Of a DNA stretch of 18,284 nucleotides, positions 333 through 18,053 are shown piece after piece (the first letter of the stretch is position 1; each line of letters opens with the position of its first letter). The notes below the pieces were generated by a model that ran no database searches, was not told the origin of the DNA, and was given only the letters and a program-made list of their open reading frames with translations. The DNA is taken from contig JAVRCV020000017.1 in assembly GCA_034530615.2 (NCBI GenBank), forward strand, positions 1 through 18,284, read 5' to 3'. The translations under genes and the position numbers were made by a program. The DNA comes from Aulosira sp. ZfuVER01 (GTDB taxonomy: Bacteria > Cyanobacteriota > Cyanobacteriia > Cyanobacteriales > Nostocaceae).

Positions 333-1496
333 ATGCCATTTTTATTAAATTCTCAGAATGTCTTAGATTATTTAACTAGACATAACCTTTGCTTTCAAGT
401 AGAGAAAGACCAAATTGAGATAGAGTTGAAAGCTGCCAAAAATTTTAATTTGTTACTAACCCTGCCAAATAATCAAAAGCTGTTAGTTAAGCAAGAACGG
501 CACAATCATGAAGGAAAGGCATCTGGTGAATTTTTAAGTGAGTGGCGAGTTCAAGAAGTCTTACAAAGATTTCCAGAACTAAATCATCTTCACCCATCAC
601 TACCAGTGATATTACATTTTGATACAGAAAATTCTATTATCGTTTTTAGATACCTGGATGATTATCAGGATGCAATGGAATTCTACACAAAGGAAAAAAT
701 TTTTGATAGTGAAATCGCTATAGCAATTGGTACTTGCCTAGCTACTATCCATCGTCATACTTTCAATAACCAGGAATATCAAGATTTTTTATCTAAGAAT
801 TTAGATAACTCTAGAACAGAACAGGTGAGAAATTTAATTCGGGGGTTGGAACGGATAGAACCAGAAATTTTTGGTGTAGTACCTGCTGATGGATTGAGAT
901 TTTTTGCCCTGTACCAACGCTACGACAGTTTAGGAGAAGCTCTGAGAAACTTGGGTAATGCTGTTATTCCTTGTTGTTTAACCCACAATGATTTAAAGCT
1001 AAATAATATATTAGTTCATAAAAATTGGCAGCAATCAACTAACAGTATTGTACGCCTAATTGATTGGGAACGTTCTGCTTGGGGAGATCCAGCTTTTGAT
1101 TTAGGAACACTTATTAGTAGCTACGTACAATTATGGCTAGGTAGCCTAGTTATTAGTAAATCTTTAAGTCTTGAGGAATCTCTAACTTTAGCGATGACTC
1201 CTTTAGAACAACTTCAGCCTTCAATTGCTACATTAACTCAAGTTTATTTGCAGACATTTCCAGAAATTTTAGAACACCGTCCTGATTTTTTACTGCGGGT
1301 AATGCAATTTACAGGTTTTGGTTTAATTCAAGGAATTCAGTCCATGATTCAGTATCAAAAATCTTTCGGCAATGTAGGTATTGCTATGCTTCAGGTTGCC
1401 AAAAGCTTATTATGTCGTCCAGAACAATCAATACCGACAATTTTTGGTGCGATTGGTACGAGTAAATTAATTAGACAAACTGCTTTGACTGCTTAA
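333..1496 (+). CDS. lanK: APH/phosphotransferase-fold Ser/Thr peptide kinase, class V lanthipeptide LanK (LxmK/TvaC-like)
   Basis: 387 aa. LLVKQE lysine, HNDLKLNN catalytic loop (HxDxxxxN), LIDWE Mg-binding motif, WGDPAFDLG. Directly upstream of a HopA1-like gene and lanM. Confidence 0.85.
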   Translation: MPFLLNSQNVLDYLTRHNLCFQVEKDQIEIELKAAKNFNLLLTLPNNQKLLVKQERHNHEGKASGEFLSEWRVQEVLQRFPELNHLHPSLPVILHFDTENSIIVFRYLDDYQDAMEFYTKEKIFDSEIAIAIGTCLATIHRHTFNNQEYQDFLSKNLDNSRTEQVRNLIRGLERIEPEIFGVVPADGLRFFALYQRYDSLGEALRNLGNAVIPCCLTHNDLKLNNILVHKNWQQSTNSIVRLIDWERSAWGDPAFDLGTLISSYVQLWLGSLVISKSLSLEESLTLAMTPLEQLQPSIATLTQVYLQTFPEILEHRPDFLLRVMQFTGFGLIQGIQSMIQYQKSFGNVGIAMLQVAKSLLCRPEQSIPTIFGAIGTSKLIRQTALTA

Positions 1497-1520: not shown

Positions 1521-2633
1521 ATGCAATTACTTAACTCTGTTCAGAGTCAGCTTCAAGCTGGGATAAATCAGCGATTACTAGATGTTCTAGAAGATATTGT
1601 TAACAAGGTAGAAATTAATTTTGATTTCTCCATTCGCCATCCAGATTATAAACCATTGGAAATACCTGCTGAAGCTGTTGAACGCTTTCAAAAATTACCT
1701 GGAGAAATGCAGCAAAAATATCTCAGTCTGCAATTGCGGAGTTTTCTGTATGGTATTTATTACAATGGTTCAATGCGAACCGAACTAGCAGCAGATAAAA
1801 AAGAAAATAATTTGCCCTTAGATTTAGAAAATAATACAGTTTTAGGGGTAGATATTGGTTTTTATAAACAATTGCATGACAGTAATTATGGAGAGGGATA
1901 TTTTCAGCCTGGCTGGTCGATTTTGAGAGAAGAAAGTGATGGCAGTTTGGCAGTTAGTAGGGGTGGATTGAGACTGCATATTCAAAAAGATAGGCATTTA
2001 CTAGCATCTGATAAATTTGCTGTTGTGGGTGATGTAATTGCGATTAAAATGCCTAAAAATGTGGTACAAAGTGGATTTTATATGGCGGTTGGTAATGCCG
2101 GATTATATCGCAATGATTTAGAAAATCAACAAATTGTGCGAATATATTTCAATTTAACTCCTTCAGGCGCTGTTGCGGTCATGGGTAATATAACGCAGCA
2201 TTTGAATGAGAAAAATATACCTTTTCAATTTAAAGTTTTGTATCATCCTAAAGATTACAAACGCCACGATTCAGGGGTTTTGTATTTTGACAAGCAGGAT
2301 TATGAAGTAGTAAAGCAATCTTTAAACTCTATTTATATAGAAAATCAAGGGGACTTTAAATCTGAAATTCCCTTGTTTACTAAAGAACTAGCACCAGGGT
2401 TAAGTTTAGCAGAAGAACCAGATCAAAAGTTTGCCGAAAGGGAAAGTTTTGGGATGAATCGCTGTCAGATAATTGCAAATGGTTTGTTAGAAGCTTGGTA
2501 TCAGGGAGATAATTCGCCCCAAGGACGGATGAAAGCAATTCAAGAGCAATTTTCGCTTGTAGGAATTGATTTCGAGCGTGTTCACCTTAATGCCAACTCT
2601 GAGGATATTTACAAAGCCTTGGATTTATCTTAG
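1521..2633 (+). CDS. lanY: HopA1-family protein; predicted phosphoSer/Thr lyase of a class V-type dehydratase (LanY-like)
   Basis: 370 aa. Motifs VRIYFNL, FQFKVL, RHDSGVLY, PLFTKELAPGLSLAEEP and ESFGMNRCQIIA are typical of HopA1-like proteins paired with APH kinases in RiPP clusters. Starts 24 bp after the kinase stop. Confidence 0.82.
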   Translation: MQLLNSVQSQLQAGINQRLLDVLEDIVNKVEINFDFSIRHPDYKPLEIPAEAVERFQKLPGEMQQKYLSLQLRSFLYGIYYNGSMRTELAADKKENNLPLDLENNTVLGVDIGFYKQLHDSNYGEGYFQPGWSILREESDGSLAVSRGGLRLHIQKDRHLLASDKFAVVGDVIAIKMPKNVVQSGFYMAVGNAGLYRNDLENQQIVRIYFNLTPSGAVAVMGNITQHLNEKNIPFQFKVLYHPKDYKRHDSGVLYFDKQDYEVVKQSLNSIYIENQGDFKSEIPLFTKELAPGLSLAEEPDQKFAERESFGMNRCQIIANGLLEAWYQGDNSPQGRMKAIQEQFSLVGIDFERVHLNANSEDIYKALDLS

Positions 2634-2636
2634 CCA

Positions 2637-5600
2637 ATGTCATTAAAATATTGTTTAAAAGATTTTGTAAACGAAGTATCAGTTTTAGAGATTTGTAGCA
2701 TGGAAATATCAGCCTCAAAATTATCGCAAATAGCTATCAACGCAACTTTTTTTTCTGAACAAATCAATAATAAGGATTGCAAAAATATCAATCCTCAAAA
2801 GCTTGACCAAAATTTAATTGAAAAACGGCTTAAAAATTGGTGTAAAGCAGTTGGAGGAGAAGAAAAACTTAAACAACGTCTCCATTGGGATAGATTAGAT
2901 TTAAATACAGTTCGTCCCTTACTAGTAACAGCAGATATTGGAGAAGATTATAATTTACCAACTTGGACAGAAACTCTTAAAGAATTAATTCAAAGTGGCA
3001 TAGCTTCTTTATTTAATCTAGAGGGAGCAGAAAAATTACCACTTGATCCTCAAAAGCCTTTACCTTTTGAAGATTTTTATTTTCCATTTATCTTAGTAGC
3101 ACGGCGTAAATTATCTGCGACATTATCTCCAAACAATCCTTTTGATTTACTAAGTAAAGAAGCATACACAGCCTTAGAATATAGTTTGCTACAACAACTA
3201 GTAAATTTAGGAACAGAAACTTTACTGCTTGAATTCAATCAATTGCGGTCAAATCAAGTTTCTGCAAACCAGACTGATTTTATAGAAAATAATAGCGGAA
3301 ATGACAGTCAATTTCTGTATCGCACCTTCATTCAAAATCTTCTCCAAGATGGAGGCTTAGATTTTTTTGAACGTTACCCTGTGTTAGCAAGGCTTATCGC
3401 TACAACTATTGATTTTTGGGTAAAAAATACTACTGAATTTATCCAACGGTTACAAGCTGATATTCCAGAAATAGAACAGACATTTTCCCCGGATATAAGC
3501 ATCGGAAAAGTCAAGGAAATAGAAACTGCTCTCTCAAATCCCCACAATGGCGGGCGCAGCATTTTAGCGATTACCTTCTCTTCAGGTGTCAAAATTGTCT
3601 ATAAACCTAAAGACTTGAGTCTAGATATAGCTTTCAATCATTTACTAGACTGGTGTAACCAACAGGATATATCTTTAGCCTTCAAAGCTACCAAAATTCT
3701 CAAACGTCAAGAATATGGCTGGGTTGAATTTATTTATCACCAACCTTGTGAGAATCAAACCGCAGTCAAAAACTTCTATAAAAGAGCAGGAATGTTATTA
3801 TCACTACTGTTTGTATTAGGAGCTAAGGACTGTAGCTCTGAAAATGTTATTGCCAATTCTGAATATCCAATTCTGATTGATGCTGATATCTTGATGCATC
3901 CTATACTCAAAAGCAACGATGAATCAGAAGACTGGTTTAAAGATTCAGTTTTAAAAGTGGGGTTTTTACCTAATTGGGAAGGTAATACATTCTCAGCAAA
4001 TGCTCAAGATTCCAGTGTACTTGGTAATATTTATCCCCAACAAGTTAATTCTTCTAGAGAGTGGAAATTTGTTAACACAGATGGAATGCATTTAGCTGCG
4101 AAAACTGCAATTATTCCTTCTGGTACTAATGCGGTAATTCTAGAAGGTAAACCTGTTTCTCCCAGGAACTATGTAGAGGCAATTGTTACTGGCTTTGAGG
4201 AAATATACCGCTTATTAATCAAAAATAAAGAAACTTTGATGGGTGAAGAAAGTTCTCTATCACCCATCAAATCATTAAAGTCTCGATTTATCCCGCACCC
4301 ATCAATCATCTATGCTATCGCCGCTAAAAACAGCCTCAATCCTCAATCTTTGCGTAATGGCATAGAATATAGCATTCTGATTAATAGTTTAATTGATACT
4401 TTTAGCCGTTCTTTGCTAAAAGTTGAAGCAAATCCAGAAATTTGGGTAATTTGGCAAGCAGAAACAAGGTCTTTACAACAGCAAGATATTCCCTATTTCT
4501 CTGTAAGCTGTGATAGTGATGATTTAGAAATTGAACAAGACAAGTTAATTAAGCAGTTTTTTAAAATATCCAGTTACCAAAGGTTAATTACTCAACTGCA
4601 AAATCTTGATGAACAGGATTTAACTATACAAATTAAATTAATTCGGATGAGTTTTGATGCCAAGTTTGCTCATTTAACAACGAACAATGCTGCTTTACAG
4701 GGTAATTTACCACAATTACACTCACTTACTACTGAAGAATTACTGCAAGAAGCTGTAGAAATTGGCAATAATCTTGTCTCAAATGCGATTTGTAATTCTA
4801 ACGGATGCAACTGGATTAATTTAGATTATATGTTCCAGGCTAATCGCTACCAACTCCAGCCGTTAGATGATTCTTTATATAGAGGGCGTGCTGGAGTAAG
4901 TTTGTTCCTAGCAGCCTTAGCAAAAATAACTGGTAAAAATGAATTTAAAGAGGTGGCTTTAGCTGCTTTATCACCTTTGCAACAATCGCTAAAAAAAGCA
5001 GAAATCTGCAAAGAAATACTAGATTCAGAATTTGGTTTATTGGGTATAGGTGGTTTTATCTACAGTCTAGTTAAAATTAGTCAATTTTTGGCACAGCCAA
5101 ATCTTTTAGAATCTGCCCATTTTGCAGCAAAACTATTGACAAAAGAGGTAATCACTACTGATGAAAAGCTGGATATTATGTGGGGAGTTGCGGGAGCAAT
5201 TCCAGGTTTATTAACCCTTTATCATCAAACAGGCGAACAAGCTGTGTTAGACATAGCAGTCACCTGTGGCAATCATTTATTATCACATCGAAGTAATAGT
5301 AACCCTAGAGCATGGGTAACAATAGAAAGTAAAAAACCTTTAACTGGTTTTTCTCACGGAGCAGCAGGTATTTCTCTTTCTCTATTGCGACTATATGCTG
5401 CTACAGCAGATATAGCTTTTTTAGAAGCTGCAAAAGAGGCAATTGAATATGAAAAAAGTGTCTTTGATGAATCAGTTCAAAACTGGCCAGATTTCCGTTT
5501 ATCGGAAAAAACAAATCAAATTAACTTCTTGCATACTTGGTGTCATGGAAGTGCTGGAATTGGGTTAGCTCGTTTAGGTAGTTTGTCAATTATACAGACA

Positions 5601-5942
5601 GAAGAAATTTACTCAGACATTAATATCGCTTTAGAAACTGCTCAAAAGTATGGAATCCCCAGCACAGATATAGACCATATCTGCTGTGGACACATGGGTA
5701 GAACCGAACTGTTTATTTTAGCATCTCAAAAATTGGATAATCAAGAATGGCTAAACATTGCCATAAAACAGGCTGCATGGGTAATAGAAAGGGCAAAAGC
5801 AAATGGAGAATATTCTTTTTCTTCTCACTTGTATAAATCTGCTTATAGCCCTAGTTTTTTCCGAGGTTATGCAGGTATAGGTTATCAATTCCTACGTTTA
5901 GCATTTCCTGAATCTTTACCTTCAGTCTTAATTTGGGAGTAA
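2637..5942 (+). CDS. lanM: Class II lanthipeptide synthetase LanM (degenerate-looking dehydratase domain plus LanC-like CCG-type cyclase)
   Basis: 1101 aa (alternative ATG at 2700). YPVLARL, IVYKPK, GWVEFI and QQDIPYF in the N-terminal domain; LYRGRAG, GFSHGAAG, NWPDFR, WCHGSAG, HICCG and FFRGYAGIGY in the cyclase domain. Confidence 0.95.
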   Translation: MSLKYCLKDFVNEVSVLEICSMEISASKLSQIAINATFFSEQINNKDCKNINPQKLDQNLIEKRLKNWCKAVGGEEKLKQRLHWDRLDLNTVRPLLVTADIGEDYNLPTWTETLKELIQSGIASLFNLEGAEKLPLDPQKPLPFEDFYFPFILVARRKLSATLSPNNPFDLLSKEAYTALEYSLLQQLVNLGTETLLLEFNQLRSNQVSANQTDFIENNSGNDSQFLYRTFIQNLLQDGGLDFFERYPVLARLIATTIDFWVKNTTEFIQRLQADIPEIEQTFSPDISIGKVKEIETALSNPHNGGRSILAITFSSGVKIVYKPKDLSLDIAFNHLLDWCNQQDISLAFKATKILKRQEYGWVEFIYHQPCENQTAVKNFYKRAGMLLSLLFVLGAKDCSSENVIANSEYPILIDADILMHPILKSNDESEDWFKDSVLKVGFLPNWEGNTFSANAQDSSVLGNIYPQQVNSSREWKFVNTDGMHLAAKTAIIPSGTNAVILEGKPVSPRNYVEAIVTGFEEIYRLLIKNKETLMGEESSLSPIKSLKSRFIPHPSIIYAIAAKNSLNPQSLRNGIEYSILINSLIDTFSRSLLKVEANPEIWVIWQAETRSLQQQDIPYFSVSCDSDDLEIEQDKLIKQFFKISSYQRLITQLQNLDEQDLTIQIKLIRMSFDAKFAHLTTNNAALQGNLPQLHSLTTEELLQEAVEIGNNLVSNAICNSNGCNWINLDYMFQANRYQLQPLDDSLYRGRAGVSLFLAALAKITGKNEFKEVALAALSPLQQSLKKAEICKEILDSEFGLLGIGGFIYSLVKISQFLAQPNLLESAHFAAKLLTKEVITTDEKLDIMWGVAGAIPGLLTLYHQTGEQAVLDIAVTCGNHLLSHRSNSNPRAWVTIESKKPLTGFSHGAAGISLSLLRLYAATADIAFLEAAKEAIEYEKSVFDESVQNWPDFRLSEKTNQINFLHTWCHGSAGIGLARLGSLSIIQTEEIYSDINIALETAQKYGIPSTDIDHICCGHMGRTELFILASQKLDNQEWLNIAIKQAAWVIERAKANGEYSFSSHLYKSAYSPSFFRGYAGIGYQFLRLAFPESLPSVLIWE

Positions 5943-6002: not shown

Positions 6003-6379
6003 AACAGAAGATTAGTGGATTTTACAAAAGTGTGATGCTCCCTGCTTGCTATGAGGAATTAGCAATTCTATTTTCTAGAACAAAATTTACATCTAGAATA
6101 ATTTATCATTCATCAGCACAAAATTTTTATTGTGCTGATTTTTTATGTGTTTAGCTAATCTTGTACAATTAAAGTGACAAAAATAATTTATTTTTTTCTT
6201 AAAAATATTCAATAATAGTAGACGAATAAAATTTTTAGTAATGAAGTCCATGTAATTCTTATTTATATAAATGATCATGAATTAATTTAGGCTTAAAGAG
6301 GAACATAAATGTAATCTTTATGTCATAAAAATGCTTTGTTATTTGTGGATTTTAGCAATTTCAATAGCTATTATAGGGA

Positions 6380-6450: not shown

Positions 6451-6636
6451 ATGGCTAATATCAATATAAAAGATTTATTGAATCTAAATCTGACAGGTGC
6501 TGAGTTATTTAACGATTCAGAAAGTTTTCTAAATGAACTGAGTGACGAAAGCGAGCAAGTAATTGGTGGTCACAAAACAGTGTATTGCCAGTTACCTAGC
6601 TGTAAGGAAACTAAGGTTATAATCAAGGCTGTCTAG
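6451..6636 (+). CDS. lanA: Lanthipeptide precursor 1: 40-aa GG leader plus 21-aa core HKTVYCQLPSCKETKVIIKAV
   Basis: GGAG RBS. Leader ...GAELFNDSESFLNELSDESEQVIGG. Core has 2 Cys, 1 Ser and 2 Thr. Paralog of 6786..6995. Confidence 0.9.
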   Translation: MANINIKDLLNLNLTGAELFNDSESFLNELSDESEQVIGGHKTVYCQLPSCKETKVIIKAV

Positions 6637-6785: not shown

Positions 6786-6995
6786 ATGGCTAATATCAAG
6801 GTAAATGATTTATTGAATCTCAACCTGACTGGCGGTGAATTATTTAATGATTCAGAAAGCTTTCTGACTGAATTAAGCGATGAAAGCGAGCAAATAGGAG
6901 TAATTGGCGGTAAATGCTTTTTATTAAGTTGGTATTGTTGTACCCCTACCGTCGTCCAAGATTGCCCCCCAGATTGGTTAGAGAAAAATCAATAA
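6786..6995 (+). CDS. lanA: Lanthipeptide precursor 2: 42-aa GG leader plus 27-aa core KCFLLSWYCCTPTVVQDCPPDWLEKNQ
   Basis: GGAGG RBS. Leader nearly identical to precursor 1, ending VIGG. Core has 4 Cys, 1 Ser and 2 Thr. Confidence 0.9.
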   Translation: MANIKVNDLLNLNLTGGELFNDSESFLTELSDESEQIGVIGGKCFLLSWYCCTPTVVQDCPPDWLEKNQ

Positions 6996-7282: not shown

Positions 7283-8020
7283 CTATTCTATATGTTTAAA
7301 AACCTCAATTACCTGTATTTGCTGCTTTATCCACTCTTCAAAAAAATTTGACATAATTTGATAACGTAACTTCTCACTCAATTCTGGTTGAATAATCTCT
7401 TCCACCCTAATCAAATGTACTCCCTTGGAAGTAATAATTGGCTTGAGAAGTTGGGGTGGTTTAGCAGCAAAAACAGCAGCAGAAATTTCTGGCTTTAAAT
7501 CTTTACGATTTACTTTCCCTCGATATCCACATTTGCGACGTAATTCTGTATCTTGGATGTATTGATTAGCTACATCATAAAAACTAGTTTCACCTTCCTT
7601 AACGGCATAAAATAGTTCCATAGCCAAGTCTTCATCATCTAAGACAACTTCATATATCAAAGCACCAGCATAGTCTAGTTGATTTTCAAAAAAATAGGGT
7701 TCAACTTTATCTGCAAATAGATGTTGAGCTAACTTATTAGCAAGCAAATTCTTGTAAACTACTTCTTCAAAGTCATCTAAAGATAGAGCGTGTTCTTCTA
7801 ACCATTTCCATGTGTCTTCAGCAGTTTCTAGTTTATTCATTAATCGGAAATTATCTGCTGCTTTTTGAAGTTCCTCAGTCTCTACTTTGATACTCATTTT
7901 AGATACAGCATTTTCAATCACCTTTTGGGTAATAATCTTCTCAATTAAATCAGGAATTTGGCAATATTGCTTGACGATATGCAAAATATCTTGGTTGGTA
8001 ATTGTGATAGTTTGTGACAT
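7283..8020 (-). CDS. PpiC/parvulin-like peptidyl-prolyl isomerase (foldase) of a peptide-export operon
   Basis: 245 aa. SFYDVANQY, CGYRGKVNRKDLKPEISAAVF and PIITSKGVHLIRVEE match a rotamase pattern. Last gene after the ABC exporter and HlyD. Confidence 0.85.
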   Translation of the reverse strand: MSQTITITNQDILHIVKQYCQIPDLIEKIITQKVIENAVSKMSIKVETEELQKAADNFRLMNKLETAEDTWKWLEEHALSLDDFEEVVYKNLLANKLAQHLFADKVEPYFFENQLDYAGALIYEVVLDDEDLAMELFYAVKEGETSFYDVANQYIQDTELRRKCGYRGKVNRKDLKPEISAAVFAAKPPQLLKPIITSKGVHLIRVEEIIQPELSEKLRYQIMSNFFEEWIKQQIQVIEVFKHIE

Positions 8021-8213: not shown

Positions 8214-9725
8214 TTAGCTTCCTTCTTGCAACTGTTTAAATGGGTCGAGTAGAAAATCAATAATCCGACGCTGGCGTACTATTACTTCTGCTGTTGCTGT
8301 ATCGCCAGGACGTAAAGGTGTACATTGATTTTTACTAGGTATACAATTAATATTCAGGGAAATTTCTAAGTTATATGCAGCAACTTTTCCATTAGGTGTA
8401 TCAACTTCTAATGTAGTCGGTGAAATTTCTACTAATTCCCCTTCAATAATTCCATAATCTTGAAACGGATAGGCATCAAATTTAAGTTTTACTGGCAATC
8501 CTTTACGCAAGGAACCACTTTCAGATGTTGGCATTTGTGCCCGAACAATCAAAGGTGAACCTTCTGGAGCAATCTCTGCAACCATTGTTCCCGGTTGGAC
8601 AACTGCACCTGGACGTTGAATTGGTAGTTGAAATACTCTACCTGCAATGGGAGATTTTAAGACTCGTTGCTGTAATTGCAATTGCAAGCTGTTTATTTGA
8701 CTATTAGTTTGAGCAATTTCTGCTTGTAATGTTGTCATTTCTGTGTCTAAATTATTTAATTGTTCCTCACTTTTAAGTACAGCCAGTTTTCCAGAATGAG
8801 TTAAGGTTTGATAACTTCGTCTTTGTTCTTTTAAGCGTAAATATGCTTGTTCAATTTCTGCCTTTGCTTGACGAATGGTGCGCTGATAGCTGCTTTGTTG
8901 TTCCGCCAAACGTAGATTGGCTTGTTTAATATCTGATTTGCTTTGTTCGTATAATCTCTGTCTTTCTTTGGCTATATCTTGCTTATCTACAACATTAATT
9001 TCTGGAATAGCACCTGCTTGTTTAAGTTTGCTGTAGCGTTCTACTTCCCTTTGGGCACTTTCTAAACTATTTTCTAATAATTTATTCGCAGTTTGAGTTT
9101 GTTCAATAGATTGTCGTGCCTGATTAACTTGGGTTGTTTTTTCTTCTTGTTGAATTTCATAGGAATTTTTTAAAGCTGTTAAATTTTGCTGTACCTGCTC
9201 GATTTGGGCTTGTTTTTCTAACTCTTGGGCTTGATTTTGTTGGCGTTGAGTGGCTAAAGATACAACGATCTGATTTTTCAGCAGATTTAATTGCGATCGC
9301 CTATTTAATTGCCCTTCTAATTTTTCCTTACTTTGACGCAAGTCAGACTTCACTAATTCTGAATCTAATATCAATACAGGTTCTCCAGGCTTGACTAGAT
9401 CGCCTTCTTTGACTGGGATAGAAGTGACTGTCCCAGGTACAGCGCTATCTAATTTAAATGTTTTACCCTTTGGCTCCAGTCTTCCCCTAGCTGTGCCAGT
9501 TTCATCTACTTTAGATAGCATTGCCCAAGGCAGAGAAATAGAGATAAAACTGAGCAGAAAATACAACATTCCCCTTGTCCAAACTTGGGGTAATCCATCA
9601 AGTAAATCTTTAGTATGCTCAGACAAATCATTGGGTAATTGAGTTACGTTTGGAGAGGGATTTCCTGGTTCTTTATATTCATTAATTGCAGTTGCTAATT
9701 TACTGTTTAATATCTCAGACATCAT
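8214..9725 (-). CDS. hlyD: HlyD-family membrane fusion / periplasmic adaptor protein
   Basis: 503 aa. N-terminal TM segment, ARGRLEP, VKEGDLVKPGEPVL, a long Gln-rich coiled coil, LKSPIAGRV, KFDAYPFQDYG and LRPGDTATAEV. Confidence 0.93.
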   Translation of the reverse strand: MMSEILNSKLATAINEYKEPGNPSPNVTQLPNDLSEHTKDLLDGLPQVWTRGMLYFLLSFISISLPWAMLSKVDETGTARGRLEPKGKTFKLDSAVPGTVTSIPVKEGDLVKPGEPVLILDSELVKSDLRQSKEKLEGQLNRRSQLNLLKNQIVVSLATQRQQNQAQELEKQAQIEQVQQNLTALKNSYEIQQEEKTTQVNQARQSIEQTQTANKLLENSLESAQREVERYSKLKQAGAIPEINVVDKQDIAKERQRLYEQSKSDIKQANLRLAEQQSSYQRTIRQAKAEIEQAYLRLKEQRRSYQTLTHSGKLAVLKSEEQLNNLDTEMTTLQAEIAQTNSQINSLQLQLQQRVLKSPIAGRVFQLPIQRPGAVVQPGTMVAEIAPEGSPLIVRAQMPTSESGSLRKGLPVKLKFDAYPFQDYGIIEGELVEISPTTLEVDTPNGKVAAYNLEISLNINCIPSKNQCTPLRPGDTATAEVIVRQRRIIDFLLDPFKQLQEGS

Positions 9726-9898: not shown

Positions 9899-12634
9899 TT
9901 ATACTGATGCGTCTAACTGTTGTTGATTGAGATAGAAATAATGTCCGCGTTTAGTCATCAATTCTTGGTGAGTTCCACTTTCAATTAACACACCTTTATC
10001 TAATACCAAAATCAAATCGGCATTTCTGACAGTGGAAAGACGATGGGCAATCACTAAGGTAGTTCTTCCCTTAAGAATAGTATTAAAATTCTTCTGAATA
10101 ATCCGTTCCGATTCTGTATCTAAATGAGAAGTTGCCTCATCTAAAATTAATAATCGAGGATTGCCTAATAAAGCTCTAGCTATGGCAATTCTTTGCTTTT
10201 GTCCTCCAGACAGCATCCCTCCACCTTCACCAATTTGGCTTTCATAGCCCATTGGCAACTTTTTAATAAACTCATCAGCACCGGCTTGAGTTGCTGCTTC
10301 GATAATTTCTTCTAATTTTGCGCTGGGATGTCCTAAGCTAATATTTTCCCGAATTGTACTACCAAATAAAAAGGTATCTTGGTCAACTACTCCCACTTGT
10401 TGACGTAAGGAACGTAAGGAAATACTGGTAATATCACATCCATCAATTAAGACTTTGCCATCGCTTGGTGGATATAAGCCTAAAACTAACTTAGAAATCG
10501 TAGTTTTCCCCGAACCACTGCGACCGACTAATGCTACCATTTGTCCTGGCTGAATTTGAAAACTAAGATTTTCAATCACATTTCTATCGCTTTCAGAGTG
10601 ATAGCGAAAGCTGACGTTTTCAAAACGGATGTCACCTTGAATCAAAGGTAAATTTTGTCGGATTTGATGTTGTAAATTCTCCTCTGGCTCTGTGTCTAAT
10701 ACATCATTAATGCGTTCCATTGCAATGACAACTTCCTGTAATTGGTTCCACAATACTGCTAAACGTTGGAAAGGGGAAATAATAGTCCCTAGCAGCATAT
10801 TAAATGCTACAAGTTGCCCAATCGTTAGCTGATTCTGAATTACTAAATGTGCCCCAAACCATAGTAATGATGTAGTTGCAATTGCTTGAATAGAATTACT
10901 AAAAATTTGTAAGCGATTGCTAATAACTTGTCCAGAAAAACCAGTTTTAACTGCTTTGTGTAATAACTCTTCCCAATGCCAGCGTACCGTTTGTTCTACA
11001 GATGTAGATTTAATTGTTCGCACACCAGAAATAGCTTCAATGAGATAACTACTTTCTTGGTTATAAGCACTAAATATTTCCCTGGAATTCTTCTTTAAAA
11101 AGGGTGTAGCAATCAACGCCAATAAAAAGAATGGCGGTACAATAACTAGAGAAAGTAAAGCCATTTTCCAACTGTACCAAAACATCAATCCTACATAGAT
11201 AAATACAGTGAGTAAATCTAATAGAATTGATAATGCTTCACCAGAAAGAAAGCGTTGAATTTTGCGGTTTTCTTGGACGCGAGAAATAATATCGCCAACA
11301 TAACGAGTTTCAAAGAAACTTAAAGGAAGTTGTAGGGTATGACGGATAAATCCGACAATCAAAGCTACATCTAGCCTATTAGCTGTATGGTCTAGTAAAT
11401 ATTGCCGCAAACCAGTTATTGCTACCCGAAATAGATTAAAAATGAGCAACCCTAAACCTACAGCCGTTAAGGTCAACTCAGAACGCTGCACCACCACTCT
11501 ATCGAGAATAAACTGGGTAAATAAGGGGGTGATGAGTCCAAATATTTGGATAAATAGGGAAGCAAGAAATACTTCCAGCAACACCAAGCTGTGTGGTTTA
11601 ATTAACTCAAAAAATTGCCAGAAGGGTGTTGTAGTCTCTTCTGTATCCTTTAAAAGGGCTGTGGGTTGCAGAAGTAATGCATATCCAGTCCAATCTGCTT
11701 TAAATTCGCGATGAGTGAGGGTACGCTGACCAATGGCGGGGTCTGCAACTATGACATATTTCTTGGTGATTTCATAGACAACTATATAATGCTTCCCTTC
11801 CCAGTGAACGATCGCAGGTAATTGTTGCTTCCCTAATTGGTCGAGACTGGCTTTTACTGGTCTAGTGTTAAATCCGATACTTTCTGCTGCTACTGACAAT
11901 CCTCGCAGAGATGCACCGTTGCGGTCAACATTAGCAATATCTCGCACACGATTAACACTAAAGCGTTTTCCCCAATAACGAGACACCATCACCAAACAAG
12001 CTGCACCACAGTCTGATGAACTCTGTTGGGCAAAAAATGGATAGCGTTTAGTTACGCGCTGCCATAAATGCCCTACTCTTTGAGTGGGGTTAGGAAAGTA
12101 GGCTTTGCCGATCTTTTTCTGTGGATTACTTGCTGTTGCTGGGGAAGCACTCGTCGGTTCTTCCCGTTCAGCAAGCTGGCGTGGGACATCGGGAGATGGG
12201 GGTTCGCTGTCAGACTTAACTAATAGGGAATTTCGTGCTTGTGCCTGGGTGCGTAAATGTTCGTAAATTTGTGGATACTTAGCTATCAATTGCGACAGCA
12301 CTTCACTGGGAAGAAAAGCCAGGTGTAAGTTAACACTTGCTCTGGCTGCATAAGGTTTAAAACCTGCTTCCTGAAACAAGGTAAATTCACCAAACGATCC
12401 TCCTAACTCCAAGGTTGCAATCAGTTCGCCTGCATCATCAAGCAATCTAACTTTGCCTGCAAGCACAATATAAATACCTGGTTCAACGTCTGTTCCTTGC
12501 CAAAATTTTCCTACCTTGGGGGTAAGAGATTTAACTTGTTGAAGGCAGTGCTGTAAGTCTTCTGAGGAGAGAGAATAACCTAAGACAGTGCATAATTGCT
12601 GCAAAGACAGCAACTCTGATAGATTTTGCGCCAT
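9899..12634 (-). CDS. lanT: Peptidase-containing ABC exporter (cNMP-binding-like N-domain, C39 peptidase, TMD, NBD), LanT/HlyB type
   Basis: 911 aa. C39 motifs QQSSSDCGAAC, HWEGKHYIVV and VADPA. Walker A GRSGSGKT, signature LSGGQKQR, Walker B ILDEATS, H-loop IAHRLST. N-terminal GIYIVLAGKVRLL...GSFGE...YAARAS resembles a cNMP-binding fold. Confidence 0.95.
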   Translation of the reverse strand: MAQNLSELLSLQQLCTVLGYSLSSEDLQHCLQQVKSLTPKVGKFWQGTDVEPGIYIVLAGKVRLLDDAGELIATLELGGSFGEFTLFQEAGFKPYAARASVNLHLAFLPSEVLSQLIAKYPQIYEHLRTQAQARNSLLVKSDSEPPSPDVPRQLAEREEPTSASPATASNPQKKIGKAYFPNPTQRVGHLWQRVTKRYPFFAQQSSSDCGAACLVMVSRYWGKRFSVNRVRDIANVDRNGASLRGLSVAAESIGFNTRPVKASLDQLGKQQLPAIVHWEGKHYIVVYEITKKYVIVADPAIGQRTLTHREFKADWTGYALLLQPTALLKDTEETTTPFWQFFELIKPHSLVLLEVFLASLFIQIFGLITPLFTQFILDRVVVQRSELTLTAVGLGLLIFNLFRVAITGLRQYLLDHTANRLDVALIVGFIRHTLQLPLSFFETRYVGDIISRVQENRKIQRFLSGEALSILLDLLTVFIYVGLMFWYSWKMALLSLVIVPPFFLLALIATPFLKKNSREIFSAYNQESSYLIEAISGVRTIKSTSVEQTVRWHWEELLHKAVKTGFSGQVISNRLQIFSNSIQAIATTSLLWFGAHLVIQNQLTIGQLVAFNMLLGTIISPFQRLAVLWNQLQEVVIAMERINDVLDTEPEENLQHQIRQNLPLIQGDIRFENVSFRYHSESDRNVIENLSFQIQPGQMVALVGRSGSGKTTISKLVLGLYPPSDGKVLIDGCDITSISLRSLRQQVGVVDQDTFLFGSTIRENISLGHPSAKLEEIIEAATQAGADEFIKKLPMGYESQIGEGGGMLSGGQKQRIAIARALLGNPRLLILDEATSHLDTESERIIQKNFNTILKGRTTLVIAHRLSTVRNADLILVLDKGVLIESGTHQELMTKRGHYFYLNQQQLDASV

Positions 12635-12669: not shown

Positions 12670-13269
12670 TTATTTTTCTGATTCCAAAAGAAAAAATCCG
12701 GTAAAATTACGTGAATTTTCGGATTTGAGGTCAGAGATTAAGATTTTTTGTCCTGCGGTCTTCTCTGTATTTTCACCTTTAGATGGGCTGGGTTTGGGGA
12801 TTGTTGATAATCCCATTTGTTTGAGGACTCGCTTGAGGTGGCGATCGCTAACTTCAATTCCTAATTCTTTCGCTAAATGCTTTTTCAACCAGCTGACTGT
12901 CCAGCGTCTAAACCCATAGCCATAATCGCGGGGACTTTGGGAAAGCAACTGTTGTAAGCGTTCTAAATATTCCTGACTAATAGCTTTCGGACGACCAAGA
13001 GGACAATCCTGCCATTGGTGCGCCATCCCCGTCCGGGCAATGTGCATCCAATGCCGTGCTGTCGCCGGACAACATGCTAAGGTCTGACAAATTTCCGTTT
13101 GGGTTTTGCCGTCATCCGCCAACAACATAATTTCTATTCGCTGACGATAAGACTCAGACAAATCCTCTTGCAGGTTTTTTTGCAGCAGTTTGCGCTGAAA
13201 TGGTGTTAAATACTTACCTGCCCCAATATTTGGGATATCAACTTCAGGTTGCTCAAAATCTTTTGACAT
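12670..13269 (-). CDS. Helix-turn-helix protein resembling the DNA-binding half of IS630 transposases (no DDE domain); putative regulator
   Basis: 199 aa. RQRIEIMLLADDGKTQTEICQTLACCPATARHW (HTH), GRP linker, SPRDYGYGFRRWTVSWLKKHLAKELGIEVSDRHLKRVLKQMGLS (winged HTH). Ends 35 bp upstream of the exporter start. Confidence 0.8.
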   Translation of the reverse strand: MSKDFEQPEVDIPNIGAGKYLTPFQRKLLQKNLQEDLSESYRQRIEIMLLADDGKTQTEICQTLACCPATARHWMHIARTGMAHQWQDCPLGRPKAISQEYLERLQQLLSQSPRDYGYGFRRWTVSWLKKHLAKELGIEVSDRHLKRVLKQMGLSTIPKPSPSKGENTEKTAGQKILISDLKSENSRNFTGFFLLESEK

Positions 13270-13828: not shown

Positions 13829-14635
13829 CTAACTGCCAGTAGAACAGTAGTATCGCTCGCCTACTTTCCAAAGCTGAAGCGCAACTATCAGAAAGAGAAT
13901 TCCTGCGATTGGCGATACGTAACAAAACCATAAAGGCACTAAAAAATTATCTTCTTTTTCAAGTACTGCGAGCAGAGGAAAATAGCTGACGCAGCCAAGC
14001 GGTATCAAGAAGGTAAAAAATCGCTGAAACCATTTGCTATAAATTGAAAGCGGATATTGAGCAGTTTCAACTCCTCCATAAGTGAGGATATTCATAATTT
14101 CTAGCGATTCAATAGTCCAGAATGTCAGGGTTGCTTGCACAATCACGATACCAACAAATAGTGCAACCCCACCAATAAATGATGTACCCAAAAGCCAAAA
14201 TGTTTTAAAAGTAAAAGGAATGTATAGCGTTGAAAGCGACCACGCCATCAACACAATTCCTTGAGCAACTCGTCCGATTCGTTTAAAGGTAAATTCTGTG
14301 CCTAAAAGTTGCAGTACTGTAGTGCGTGGACGAAGCAGTAAACGGTCGAAATCACCACTTTTAATTATTTTTGTAAAATAATCAAACCCTTTTCCCAGAG
14401 CATCAGCACAGGCAAAAGAAATATTAATCATGCCATAAAACAGCGCAACTTCCGCAAGAGTCCACGTACCAATACTATTAAAGCGAGAAAATAATGCCCA
14501 AATTCCGAAAAATTCAATAACAGTTACTAAAAATTGCCCTAATACTTGCAGCCAAAAGGACACTTGATACTGCATTTGCGACTTGAAAGATACAGAAATA
14601 TATCGAAAGTAAAGCCAAAAATTGTTCACACTCAA
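13829..14635 (-). CDS. ABC-2 family exporter permease (DUF990-like)
   Basis: 268 aa, hydrophobic, with IKSGDFDRLLLRP and QYPLSIY. Start is TTG 14635 or GTG 14629, after AGGAG. Confidence 0.9.
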   Translation of the reverse strand: MSVNNFWLYFRYISVSFKSQMQYQVSFWLQVLGQFLVTVIEFFGIWALFSRFNSIGTWTLAEVALFYGMINISFACADALGKGFDYFTKIIKSGDFDRLLLRPRTTVLQLLGTEFTFKRIGRVAQGIVLMAWSLSTLYIPFTFKTFWLLGTSFIGGVALFVGIVIVQATLTFWTIESLEIMNILTYGGVETAQYPLSIYSKWFQRFFTFLIPLGCVSYFPLLAVLEKEDNFLVPLWFCYVSPIAGILFLIVALQLWKVGERYYCSTGS

Positions 14636-14668
14636 TTCGCTCCTCTCACGCTAAATTACGAATTATTT

Positions 14669-15487
14669 TCATCCGCCTTGAATTACCAGCTTGCTTACAC
14701 CACGCTTCACAAGAAAACGTCCAAGGATAATAATGACGACTATCCAAATAATTTGATGAAGCAATACGTTAAACAGGGCATTTGGTGGCAGATTACCTGT
14801 AAACAGACGAAAAGGTTTATCAAGTAATCCTGAAAAAGGAAGGACATTTAAAATCGGCTTGATCCAATCAGGAAAAAGTGGCAGAGGCACTATCATTCCA
14901 GAGAAGATAGTCAGAATAGGCGGGAAAACACTATTAATTCCTTCGCCAGAAATTGTCCACATCATTGATATAGTAAGAAGCATAGTCAATGTAGAGGAAA
15001 GTAGAATTGCACCGATAAAGGCAAGAAGAAAAGCACCAAAAGCAGCAAATGAAGGTGGAAAAGTAAGCGATCGCTCTGTTAGCCCTACAATAGGTAAAAG
15101 AAAAATTGTGACGCTAAGAAGCGGAATACCACGCAGTATCAAGGGTGCTGTACGCATTGCTAAAGCGCGAGTAAACCAAAAATTATAAAGGTCGGTGGGT
15201 CGCAGCAGGTCATATCCCACTCCACCAGTTCGGATTAATTCTTGAATTTCGCGATCGCCTGACCAAGGTACAATTGCTACCAGAAACGCTTGCCCAAGCC
15301 ACACATATCCTACAGCTTCGTGTAAAGTCATCGGTTGAGTAGTGGTTGCATGAGTGAAAAATGCTTCCAGAACCATCACTTTCACAAATCCCCAAAAAAA
15401 CTGAGTTCCCACTCCAGCTAAAGCAGCAGTACGATATTGCAACAGCAGTGCAAATCTCGCCAAAAACAGCGACCAGTATGCTGTCAT
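14669..15487 (-). CDS. ABC-2 family exporter permease (DUF990-like)
   Basis: 272 aa, with IRTGGVGYDLLRP, FSGMIVPLPLFP and C-terminal LVIQGG. ATG overlaps the ATPase stop (ATGA). Confidence 0.9.
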   Translation of the reverse strand: MTAYWSLFLARFALLLQYRTAALAGVGTQFFWGFVKVMVLEAFFTHATTTQPMTLHEAVGYVWLGQAFLVAIVPWSGDREIQELIRTGGVGYDLLRPTDLYNFWFTRALAMRTAPLILRGIPLLSVTIFLLPIVGLTERSLTFPPSFAAFGAFLLAFIGAILLSSTLTMLLTISMMWTISGEGINSVFPPILTIFSGMIVPLPLFPDWIKPILNVLPFSGLLDKPFRLFTGNLPPNALFNVLLHQIIWIVVIIILGRFLVKRGVSKLVIQGG

Positions 15488-16476
15488 CCTAAAATTTCTC
15501 CTGAGTTGGCATAAAGTTCCGCAACTATCTCCTCAATTGGTGGGTTTTCCACAAACAGATCCTCTACTTCGTGTTTTGAGGTAACTTGGCTAATCAGGGA
15601 TGCAGCAGAAAGCTTTGTGGGATCGAAAGCCAGAGTGACTGTGCGACCTTGTTTTGAGATGATACTAACTCCCTCTTCTGCAAACAAAAAATCATCGTTT
15701 GCTAAGTCGATTCTTAAATAACGCCGTGAGGAAACTTGAGAACGCAACGTTGCTAGAGTTCCATCACAAAGAATTTCACCGCCACCAATAATAATGATGC
15801 GATCGCACAACGCCTCAATATCATCCATATCATGGGTAGTTAAAATGGTGGTGACTTGATGCGTTTTATTCAGCGTTTTGATAAATTTTCTCACAGCCAG
15901 CTTGGAAACTGCATCTAGCCCGATAGTAGGTTCATCAAGAAACAGAATCTCAGGCCTGTGTAGCATTGCGGCTGCAAAATCACATCGCATCCTTTGTCCA
16001 AGGCTTAATTGTCTCACAGGAGTAGAGAGAAAGCTCTTGAGATCCAGCAAATCAATCATTTCATCCCGTGTTTTGCCATACTCAGAATGGGGAACGCGAT
16101 AAATATCCCGCAACAAATCGAAAGACTCAATTACTGGCAAATCCCACCATAGTTGCGTTCTTTGACCAAAAACTACTCCAATTCGCTCAACATGACGGAT
16201 TCTATCTTTCCAAGGAGTGCGTCCGTTAATGATGCATTTGCCACCGGAGGGTACTAAAATACCACTTAAAATTTTAATAGTAGTCGATTTACCTGCGCCA
16301 TTTGGGCCGATGTAGCCTACAAGTTCTCCCTGCTGTAGTGAGAAGGAAACTCCTTTGAGTGCATGAACTTCTCTAGTTTTTCGCTGCACCAGTCCTTTGA
16401 TTGAACCTAAAAGCCCGGAGGAACGTTCAGACACAAAGAAAGTTTTCTTGAGGTCTTCGACAAGAATGTGAGACAT
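15484..16476 (-). CDS. ABC-2 exporter ATP-binding subunit
   Basis: 330 aa. GPNGAGKST, VFGQRTQLWWDLP, LSLGQRMR, FLDEPTIGLD and TTHDMDDIE. Confidence 0.95.
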   Translation of the reverse strand: MSHILVEDLKKTFFVSERSSGLLGSIKGLVQRKTREVHALKGVSFSLQQGELVGYIGPNGAGKSTTIKILSGILVPSGGKCIINGRTPWKDRIRHVERIGVVFGQRTQLWWDLPVIESFDLLRDIYRVPHSEYGKTRDEMIDLLDLKSFLSTPVRQLSLGQRMRCDFAAAMLHRPEILFLDEPTIGLDAVSKLAVRKFIKTLNKTHQVTTILTTHDMDDIEALCDRIIIIGGGEILCDGTLATLRSQVSSRRYLRIDLANDDFLFAEEGVSIISKQGRTVTLAFDPTKLSAASLISQVTSKHEVEDLFVENPPIEEIVAELYANSGEILG

Positions 16477-16658: not shown

Positions 16659-18053
16659 GTGCTTACTAGAATAATGGGATCTCAAACTTTCGATTTCTTG
16701 ACTGAAAGCTTTTTATTCCGTGATGATTTTATCAAGAAACGCTTTAGAACAGTTTCTGATAGGGAGATATTAAACGAACTGAATGACTACAGAGAGTTTT
16801 GTTTAGCTAGAAAATCCCAAATTGAAGAAGAAGTTGTAACAAACACATCTAATTTAAATATGCTTTCAGGGCTTGAAATGCCTGATTTGAGTTTGTTAAA
16901 ACAAAGTGCGTTTTATATAAATCAATACTTAATCAATGATCCTATTTTCTCTCTAAGTTATAGAGGAAACGAATTCAGTAAAGCATGGAATACTTCTTTG
17001 GGAATTATCGAAGAACCTGTAGATAGGAATAAACTTTCACAAGTAGTAAGTTATGTTAAGAAACTTACTCCAATGGTTGCTGCTGACTACGTGAAGTTAT
17101 TGCCTATTGATAATTTTTTAGAGCCGCCGGAACAATTACCTATTCTTTATTCAGAAAATTTATTCTCTGATGTTCTGCCTCAACATTTGCTTGATTTTTT
17201 CTATAAAAATACTACTATAAAATCTTTAGAGCGTTTACCCGATAATCCACAAGCGTTTCGCTTGAATGAATTGCAAGCATGTAGAGAAATTCTTATACAA
17301 TTCAACAAGCATACAGATAGAAGTTATGGATATATTTTGTATGAAACCCACTTTGATATTTTAGATAAGGAAGAGAGGAAATTTCAAGCTGCAATGCGTC
17401 TGCCAGATGAGCTACCAGACATAGATTCTTTTACAAATTGGGTAAATCAGTCTTTTTATATGTCGTGTAAGCAAATCTACGATGAGGTTATTTGGAAAAA
17501 TCTGATTGCTACTCGCTATAGAGCTTCCTATTTATCTGAGTCACAATTTGTATTTGATATGCTTCATCAGTTATTCTCACCACAAACTGATATTTCAATA
17601 AATACATATAATGTCTTATTAAAAATAAAACTGCCATTTTTAGAAAATATTGATATTGCGAATTTAATGAAAATTCGCATGAATTATGGTGAGGAATTTC
17701 AAAATTTCCGTATAAATTTAGACAAGCAATTTAGAGATTTAAGATTAGTAAAAGATCCGGAGGAGTTAAAAATCAAAGCCCAGAATGCTCTTCATGAATT
17801 AACTGAAGTACAACTTCACACAATTAATCATAAAGTAAGTCAATTAAGAAAAACAAGTTTATTTTATGATGGACTTATCCTGTCAGCTAGCTTAGTAACT
17901 GCTATTCAAACTGGTGATTGGAATATGGCAGGATTATCTGCAATTATTGCCACAACATTAAGAAGTTATAAACCTTTTATAGACTATTCAAATCAGATTA
18001 AACAAAATCCAGCATTCTTTCTTTGGAAGGTTTTAAAAAAGTCATCAAAATAG
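16659..18053 (+). CDS. Hypothetical protein with a C-terminal hydrophobic hairpin
   Basis: 464-aa open frame in AT-rich DNA (GTG 16659 or ATG 16674). No motif I recognise. Confidence 0.8.
   Translation: MLTRIMGSQTFDFLTESFLFRDDFIKKRFRTVSDREILNELNDYREFCLARKSQIEEEVVTNTSNLNMLSGLEMPDLSLLKQSAFYINQYLINDPIFSLSYRGNEFSKAWNTSLGIIEEPVDRNKLSQVVSYVKKLTPMVAADYVKLLPIDNFLEPPEQLPILYSENLFSDVLPQHLLDFFYKNTTIKSLERLPDNPQAFRLNELQACREILIQFNKHTDRSYGYILYETHFDILDKEERKFQAAMRLPDELPDIDSFTNWVNQSFYMSCKQIYDEVIWKNLIATRYRASYLSESQFVFDMLHQLFSPQTDISINTYNVLLKIKLPFLENIDIANLMKIRMNYGEEFQNFRINLDKQFRDLRLVKDPEELKIKAQNALHELTEVQLHTINHKVSQLRKTSLFYDGLILSASLVTAIQTGDWNMAGLSAIIATTLRSYKPFIDYSNQIKQNPAFFLWKVLKKSSK

Follow-up and report, generated by a model that had tools for sequence, protein, structure and literature searches.

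Class II lanthipeptide synthetases of the LanM type (CylM, LicM2 and ProcM-type enzymes) combine a lipid-kinase-like dehydratase domain (DUF4135) with a LanC-like cyclase domain that carries a CCG motif. In class V clusters (CaoK/CaoY, LxmK/LxmY, SprPT/SprH3) and in the thioamitide pair TvaC/TvaD, an APH-family kinase and a HopA1-family lyase are encoded by adjacent genes (PMC9486802), and class V clusters are defined by the absence of class I-IV synthetases. Here we describe a locus in Aulosira sp. ZfuVER01 (genome of 8.0 Mb), within the first 18,284 bases of contig C17 (the whole of this stretch is called the window below), where a kinase (LanK) and a lyase (LanY) are followed by a LanM with a degenerate dehydratase active site. 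We think it probable that LanK and LanY dehydrate the precursor peptides and LanM cyclises them, the N-terminal domain (N-domain) of LanM being a retained pseudokinase, so that the locus would encode a hybrid lanthipeptide pathway. The genes and domains concerned are as follows, with lengths in amino acids (aa).

333..1496, + strand: LanK, APH-family Ser/Thr kinase, 387 aa (Pfam PF01636, E 1e-13)
1521..2633, + strand: LanY, HopA1-family phospho-Ser/Thr lyase, 370 aa (Pfam PF17914, E 1.6e-59)
2637..5942, + strand: LanM-type synthetase, open reading frame (ORF) of 1101 codons; probable start M22 at nucleotide (nt) 2700
3375..4505, + strand: lipid-kinase-like dehydratase domain (DUF4135) of LanM; degenerate active site (N301, S400, D417, H554, S556)
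3987..4136, + strand: clade-specific conserved segment, LanM aa 451-500, from column conservation
4860..5930, + strand: LanC-like cyclase domain of LanM; H907, C969, C1016 and C1017 (CCG motif)

The three genes are closely packed in tandem, with 24 nt between the adjacent LanK (PF01636) and LanY (PF17914) genes and the LanM ORF beginning 3 nt past the LanY stop. The nearest named homologues of LanM come from Nostocales (Aulosira, Calothrix, Tolypothrix, Nostoc). The window LanM differs from these class II enzymes in that the His of DxH, the Asp of the P-loop, the Glu of DxE and the elimination Arg and Thr are replaced; it also has a separate kinase and lyase encoded directly upstream, and is accompanied by a leader of a LanK-LanY (K-Y) family that was not found beside canonical LanMs. 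With class V the locus shares the adjacent kinase and lyase genes and the conserved catalytic Arg/Lys/Arg/Tyr of LanY, but it contains a class I-IV synthetase, the LanM, as putative cyclase. LanK, moreover, is only a distant relative of the LxmK equivalog, scoring 88.8 bits with the class V LxmK model NCBIfam NF038156, under the cut-off of 315. Class IV LanL takes the same three chemical steps as proposed here, with a zinc-type LanC cyclase acting last (parts of PMC9486802 and PMC10604976); LanL, however, is one chain, whereas the window has three polypeptides with kinase and lyase from unrelated families (APH and HopA1) and a putative cyclase that still carries a former kinase domain. The long C39-ABC transporter, HlyD, SurA-type peptidyl-prolyl isomerase (PPIase) and double-glycine precursors of the locus resemble the group I/II 'bacteriocin' clusters that Wang et al. 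2011 catalogued in cyanobacteria, found in nearly all cyanobacterial genomes (sections of PMC3140520); the main text of that paper uses neither the word kinase nor the word phosphotransferase, and it places clusters with LanM in a group of their own, group IV. Earlier work had already noted K-Y pairs and 'type-B' precursors in cyanobacteria (parts of PMC9486802 and PMC7794033). A literature search, mostly outside subscription journals, returned no report of a K-Y-LanM hybrid or of a degenerate LanM active site.

Active site of the window LanM

Its architecture and profile score identify the protein as a LanM, and its domain profiles place it in class II: PF13575 covers aa 247-623 (E 2.2e-120, profile positions 1-377 of 378), PF05147 covers aa 742-1098 (E 5.4e-65, profile positions 2-349 of 350), and TIGR03897 gives 945.7 bits at a cut-off of 304. 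Residues are numbered from the upstream ATG (nt 2637), as in the first-pass annotation of this DNA. The true start is probably M22, because the database call for this protein (P0004) has 1080 aa and starts there, and the orthologue at locus L003 has a stop at aligned codon 2 of the 1101-codon ORF; the first 21 codons (2637-2699) may be untranslated. The positions of interest lie in five short motifs.

nt 3534-3554, + strand: SNPHNGG, LanM aa 300-306
nt 3600-3611, + strand: YKPK, LanM aa 322-325
nt 3828-3845, + strand: DCSSEN, LanM aa 398-403
nt 3876-3887, + strand: IDAD, LanM aa 414-417
nt 4284-4313, + strand: RFIPHPSIIY, LanM aa 550-559

A phmmer search against solved structures aligned LanM end to end with LicM2 (6st5_A, E 1.9e-75) and also aligned it with CylM (5dzt_A, E 3.3e-40), whose residue numbers were obtained by counting along the aligned chain. 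N301 (codon AAT), S400 (AGC), D417 (GAT), H554 (CAC) and S556 (TCA) fall on CylM D252, H349, E366, R510 and T512, and LicM2 likewise has D, H, E, R and T. The first-pass annotation had described the site as degenerate at these positions by comparison with LanM consensus motifs; the alignment bears this out, as both reference enzymes carry the canonical residue exactly where the window LanM differs. H303, K323, D398, N403, D415 and R550 correspond to CylM H254, K274, D347, N352, D364 and R506 and are kept, and the spacings from 301 to 323 (22 residues) and from 398 to 415 (17 residues) are identical to those in CylM. All of these except H303 had been listed as retained, with the same spacings, and here too the alignment agrees.

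The conserved set of LanM dehydration residues is thus incomplete in the window LanM. Out of nine such residues in CylM, the six just named are kept and three are changed (N301, S400 and S556), and the replacements of E366 by D417 and of R510 by H554 come in addition. The window LanM retains the core phosphotransfer set, while the His of DxH, the Asp of the P-loop and the inner Arg are lost. According to the available passages of PMC4550811, CylM D347 and H349 make up the catalytic DxH pair, the gamma-phosphate is activated by K274, and N352 and D364 serve as ligands of the metal. In the same passages the D347A and D364A variants are dead and N352A is almost dead; D252A, H254A, R506A and T512A are impaired in phosphate elimination and accumulate phosphopeptides, and T512A never eliminates.

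A LanM clade linked to LanK and LanY

The substitutions are not confined to the window. Among 120 homologues, the nearest 85 (P0004-P0088, with at least 44% domain identity) vary at catalytic positions, and the next 35 are essentially canonical. So is the second LanM of the window genome, encoded on contig C22, with its near-canonical active site. We pooled 219 distinct LanM sequences from proteins and loci, 102 of them belonging to the clade of the window LanM and 117 being canonical sequences from many phyla, and counted how often each canonical residue was kept.

D at 301: 16/102 in the clade, 116/117 in the canonical set
H at 303: 98/102 in the clade, 117/117 in the canonical set
K at 323: 101/102 in the clade, 117/117 in the canonical set
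D at 398: 50/102 in the clade (others N 36, S 8, K 4, E 3, H 1), 117/117 in the canonical set
H at 400: 34/102 in the clade, 111/117 in the canonical set
N at 403: 90/102 in the clade, 117/117 in the canonical set
D at 415: 96/102 in the clade, 117/117 in the canonical set
E at 417: 2/102 in the clade, 117/117 in the canonical set
R at 550: 93/102 in the clade, 117/117 in the canonical set
R at 554: 64/102 in the clade, 113/117 in the canonical set
T at 556: 49/102 in the clade, 103/117 in the canonical set

The substitution pattern of the window LanM is far beyond chance. Exhaustive searching through 1.84 billion representatives (50% identity) gave 3544 LanM-like proteins (E <= 1e-30). The best 150 of these comprise 3 clade members and 147 others, of which 146 have E at position 417 and 116 read DHK[KR]DHENDERRT over the 13 scored positions. 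In a maximum-likelihood tree the clade is monophyletic (102/102 tips, support 1.0), with a stem of 0.415 compared with a median internal branch of 0.053. The substitutions therefore mark one monophyletic cyanobacterial LanM clade, which has a single origin and repeated losses of active-site residues. Its sub-lineages differ in the residue that replaces D398 (N, S, K, E or H), a pattern to be expected if constraint has been relaxed ever since the clade arose. One further protein in this search, P0326 (612 aa, 42% domain identity), lies outside the three clade representatives and is degenerate as well (N398, S400, Q403, D417, R556).

Gene neighbourhoods were compared at 117 loci with a LanM match, which include 19 clade loci with a readable active site. 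All 19 loci whose LanM is at least 47% identical to that of the window have 2-9 changes at the 13 catalytic positions. LanY, together with LanK where the contig reaches far enough, was found at 15 of the 16 testable clade loci, in every case on one strand and arranged as K>Y>M; three clade loci with no more than 713 bases upstream (L175, L176, L007) were not counted. By contrast, neither K nor Y was found at any of the 91 canonical LanM loci whose N-domain is visible (67 of them with at least 2.6 kb upstream and 50 with at least 5 kb on both sides), as judged by tblastn with the K and Y of the window at E <= 1e-5, a search that would miss very distant homologues. The loci are phylogenetically related and include near-duplicates (L006/L182 and L180/L181), and all these counts overstate independence. 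The association of substituted LanMs with neighbouring K/Y genes, which the first-pass annotation had proposed to test, is thus borne out at the level of loci.

Loss of residues within the N-domain is focused, not general. In an unbiased scan of the 65 N-domain columns that are at least 93% conserved in canonical LanMs, 57 were kept in the clade; six of the eight lost (81, 300, 301, 398, 400, 417, 554 and 580) are active-site positions. In sliding windows the clade was about 0.10 more conserved than the canonical set almost throughout, and this excess fell to 0.00-0.02 over the P-loop and the catalytic loop. Over aa 451-500 conservation reached 0.77-0.80 in the clade versus 0.43-0.45 in the canonical set, an excess of +0.32 to +0.36 compared with the typical +0.10. 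The ratio of nonsynonymous to synonymous substitution rates (dN/dS) was 0.16-0.34 for the N-domain and 0.19-0.30 for the cyclase domain in six valid pairs; the pair of the window and L003 was left out as invalid, its aligned start crossing a stop codon. The ratio of N-domain to C-domain identity was 0.96 in the clade versus 0.99 in the canonical set. The N-domain is thus under purifying selection, in agreement with the first-pass view that a frame intact over 1101 codons speaks against general decay.

The cyclase domain is intact. H907, C969, C1016 and C1017 are kept in 101, 101, 100 and 100 of the 102 clade members, the remainder being gaps, and the window LanM has the His and Cys ligands of the LanC fold; we take these residues to be the acid/base His and the Zn ligands known from work on NisC and ProcM. 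With its fold and most columns kept under purifying selection and its catalytic residues varying, the N-domain fits the description of a pseudoenzyme (pseudokinase) at the level of the clade.

Proposed division of labour between LanK, LanY and LanM

LanK and LanY look catalytically competent from their conserved residues. Each of LanK K53, E70, H218, D220, N225 and D244 is found in 66-67 of the 67 homologues, and we assume that they represent the beta3-Lys, HxDxxxxN and Mg-Asp motifs of kinases. LanY R207, K238, R248 and Y255 align with identical residues in the PDB entry 9dk1_B ('Lyase') and are kept in 61, 58, 66 and 62 of 66 homologues; they are spaced much like CaoY R187/K219/R229/Y236, which are needed according to the mutagenesis described in parts of PMC9486802.

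The pair also exists without LanM. Of 401 cyanobacterial genomes sampled, 59 have homologues of LanY, as do 45/45 of those from the family of the window genome, often in several copies; the window genome itself has four. We examined 60 of the LanY places, taking the 40 best that lie outside the window plus 20 weaker ones; all 60 have LanK directly upstream, and only 2 have LanM. Six annotated K-Y-only loci have the PPIase/HlyD/C39-ABC set of the window, plus radical-SAM, aldo/keto-reductase-like or NHL-repeat genes. K-Y is therefore an independent cassette that is widespread without LanM.

The other three LanK-LanY pairs of the window genome lack LanM and lie at C55:83274-84383, C11:19400-20473 and C52:238351-239385 (loci L106, L140 and L141). 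L106 has as companions two Nif11-type precursors, a radical-SAM enzyme, an aldo/keto-reductase-like gene, two PPIases and HlyD. At eight K-Y-only loci (L106, L115, L119, L122, L123, L125, L130 and L131) an ORF of 337-348 aa starts -2 to +8 nt from the LanY stop, and that of L106 has a weak aldo/keto-reductase match. The slot after LanY seems to be modular, holding either LanM or a reductase-like gene.

Two precursor genes follow LanM in the window.

6451..6636, + strand: precursor 1, 61 aa; GG-terminated leader, core with 2 Cys and 3 Ser/Thr
6786..6995, + strand: precursor 2, 69 aa; leader as in precursor 1, core with 4 Cys and 3 Ser/Thr

Their leader family (M-A-x-I ... DSESF-x-x-EL ... GG) is common to K-Y loci with and without LanM wherever matches were obtained. 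It is present at 16 of the 19 clade LanM loci, and none was found at the canonical LanM loci. Cores were compared after filtering for a complete ORF, the leader motif, a G-G/A site and a core of at least 8 residues, with duplicates merged. At the 11 K-Y-M loci all 32 distinct cores contain Cys, 30 of them at least two, with a mean of 3.28; at the 41 K-Y-only loci 11 of 105 distinct cores contain Cys, with a mean of 0.16. LanM occurs where the cores hold Cys.

Two types of core stood out in this comparison. Those of L177, L178 and L180 consist of repeated C-G-N-T units, which suggests many small thioether rings of the same size. Cys-free multicopy cores of one conserved kind, in which '..AIGH.AKS.S' is followed by Tyr/Gly-rich tails, stand beside K-Y across Nostocaceae (L128, L133, L134, L136, L137, L139, L144, L150 and others) and look like a widespread family of dehydrated peptides. 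In addition, the L005 orthologue of the window precursor 1 has two in-frame stop codons, its neighbouring precursors being intact.

The preferred pathway would run as follows. The LanK-LanY cassette would recognise the DSESF..EL..GG leader; LanK would phosphorylate core Ser/Thr with ATP, and LanY would eliminate the phosphate to give dehydroalanine or dehydrobutyrine (Dha/Dhb), as in class V chemistry. The zinc-type LanC domain of LanM would then add core Cys to the dehydro residues to form thioether rings, and the C39-ABC/HlyD exporter would remove the leader after GG. LanM would have been recruited as a cyclase where cores carry Cys, which would leave its kinase domain catalytically dispensable and still selected: the fold, the ATP/Mg-type residues (K323, N403, D415) and the new loop 451-500 would be under selection, and the two catalytic DxH residues, the Asp of the P-loop and the Thr/Arg of elimination would be free to vary. 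The N-domain probably holds peptide and/or nucleotide for the cyclase; peptide binding, nucleotide binding and support or gating of the cyclase via the 451-500 loop are candidate reasons for its retention. The pattern of residues, the clade itself, linkage of the genes, the tie to Cys in the cores and selection on the N-domain are observed; who dehydrates, that LanM acts as cyclase and why its N-domain is kept are inferred. We give about even chances to the wider proposal that the clade consists of 'pseudokinase-cyclases' and defines a hybrid class, in which the class V pair supplies the dehydro residues, the enzyme of class II descent does no more than close the rings, and a nucleotide-binding ex-kinase domain with the loop 451-500 recruits substrate or gates the cyclase.

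Several points weigh against this pathway, and some of them favour a LanM that still works, if perhaps slowly, as a bifunctional class II synthetase, with K/Y being redundant or serving other residues or peptides. The window LanM keeps H303, R550 and also D398, N403, D415 and K323, the last four being all the residues whose Ala mutants abolished CylM phosphorylation. In the passages of PMC4550811 available, CylM H349A was slow, yet reached near-complete substrate modification in 10 h, D252A gave partly dehydrated products, and a role of E366 goes unmentioned. The changes from Thr to Ser (S556) and from Glu to Asp (D417) are conservative, and D398 is kept in 19 of the 20 members of the window's own sub-clade. 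However, position 398 is occupied by N, S, K, E or H in sister lineages that have the same gene order and leader family, which shows that the pathway can do without this Asp. Both E417 and D301, present in 117/117 and 116/117 canonical LanMs, are changed; K/Y accompany 15/16 testable clade loci compared with 0/91 canonical ones; and the leader is of the K-Y type. We therefore regard a bifunctional LanM as unlikely. The catalytic Asp is replaced in 52 of the 102 clade members and CylM D347A is dead; therefore the clade as a whole cannot depend on phosphotransfer by LanM. The pseudo-dehydratase proposed in the first-pass annotation is supported for the clade, while inactivity of the window LanM itself, which keeps D398, K323, N403 and D415 and may retain some kinase activity, does not follow. 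Further points against the preferred pathway, apart from the stated limits of the locus counts, concern the need for LanM and its partners. Nine K-Y-only loci have Cys-containing cores without LanM, and LanM is thus not strictly needed where there is Cys. At L172, a clade LanM lacks K/Y in the 7.6 kb upstream and the 9 kb downstream, and the sole K-Y pair found in that genome lies about 700 kb away; the LanM stands directly beside a Cys-rich precursor of the K-Y leader family. This distance makes a scaffold for K/Y, one of the roles suggested for the N-domain in the first-pass annotation, less likely as the reason for its retention, and weakens an obligatory or permanent role of that kind.

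The split of LanM activities might also run through the dehydratase site itself, LanM phosphorylating but being unable to eliminate (N301, H554, S556) and LanY removing the phosphates that LanM installs. N301 and S556 do fall on CylM D252 and T512, whose mutants accumulate phosphopeptides, and the phosphotransfer set is intact; but this would leave LanK unexplained, though it is intact, with K at 60/60 Y loci and kinase motifs kept in 66-67 of 67 homologues. Half of the clade, moreover, is without the catalytic Asp, and the DxH His is lost in the window LanM too; we regard this split as very unlikely. A new nucleotide-dependent role for the N-domain (e.g. ATP/ADP-gated control of the cyclase, or another modification), as opposed to a passive binding module, would account for the retention of K323, D415, N403 and the new D417 by 90-101 of 102 clade members, for the clade-specific conserved loop 451-500, and for a dN/dS as low in the N-domain as in the cyclase domain. 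That K323, D415 and N403 are so well conserved in the clade (also 90-101/102) suggests that some nucleotide-dependent function survives, which is another point against the preferred pathway. Yet cores and neighbouring genes suggest no extra chemistry, and this possibility overlaps with the preferred pathway and does not exclude it; as a separate explanation we find it highly improbable. Decay of the whole LanM gene into a relic, for which one could cite the several active-site substitutions and a lone 300-aa C-terminal LanM remnant at L047, has next to no chance of being right: no stop interrupts the 1101 codons, dN/dS lies at 0.16-0.34 for both domains, and 57/65 conserved N-domain columns and the cyclase residues (100-101/102) are kept. 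A decaying pseudogene was rejected on the grounds of these columns, the intact cyclase residues and dN/dS.

If K/Y dehydrate and LanM cyclises, the clade would be a natural case of a synthetase domain for peptides that are made by the ribosome and then modified post-translationally (RiPPs) turned pseudoenzyme after another dehydratase displaced its function. The system would separate the two activities of LanM and offer a natural experiment on which parts of the dehydratase domain are needed beyond dehydration, as well as a way to ask how LanM engages its peptide, which is hard to pin down for class II. In genome mining, tools built on 'LanM' would call such clusters class II with the wrong enzyme logic, and tools built on K/Y would call them class V. 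The cyanobacterial K-Y pair looks like a reusable dehydration cassette, with the following gene (LanM, reductase-like or radical SAM) setting the product type. For engineering, the clade may offer a CCG-type cyclase that acts as if stand-alone and is matched to a separate dehydratase.

Remaining features of the window and related loci

Downstream of the precursors, the following genes lie on the opposite strand.

7283..8020, - strand: SurA/PpiC-type peptidyl-prolyl isomerase (PF00639; TIGR04500 'peptide maturation system' 77.5 bits, under its cut-off)
8214..9725, - strand: HlyD-family secretion adaptor (PF13437; TIGR01843 231.2 bits, above its cut-off)
9899..12634, - strand: protein with cyclic-nucleotide (cNMP)-binding, C39 peptidase and ATP-binding cassette (ABC) exporter domains (PF00027, PF03412, PF00664, PF00005)

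A SurA/PpiC-type PPIase gene is also present in K-Y loci without LanM. The C39-ABC exporter would be predicted to cleave after the GG of the leader. A helix-turn-helix (HTH) protein of 199 aa at 12670-13269 (- strand) covers no more than positions 1-124 of an IS630 transposase model and is probably a piece of a transposase; on one side of it is the exporter, on the other an ABC-2 transporter set (13829-16476). The ORF at 16659-18053 (+ strand, 464 aa) belongs to a conserved hypothetical family (Atlas feature score 0.98, TM 0.85) and gave no Pfam or NCBIfam match.

A scan of the window gave 19 promoter-like sites versus 29.7 expected and 7 terminator-like sites versus 4.1, overall not above chance. 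One terminator-like hairpin, at 6112-6139 (+ strand; 10 pairs, then a T-run), stands between the LanM stop and the precursors.

Shortened relatives of LanM were also seen. The remnant at L047:10001-10891 stands alone and matches LanM residues 800-1101 at 50% identity, and no N-domain, K/Y or precursor was found at that locus. Almost all other shorter LanM matches of at least 50% identity are on contigs of less than 6 kb and are probably cut genes. P0126, a shorter LanM relative of 470 aa, is encoded on an 11 kb contig.

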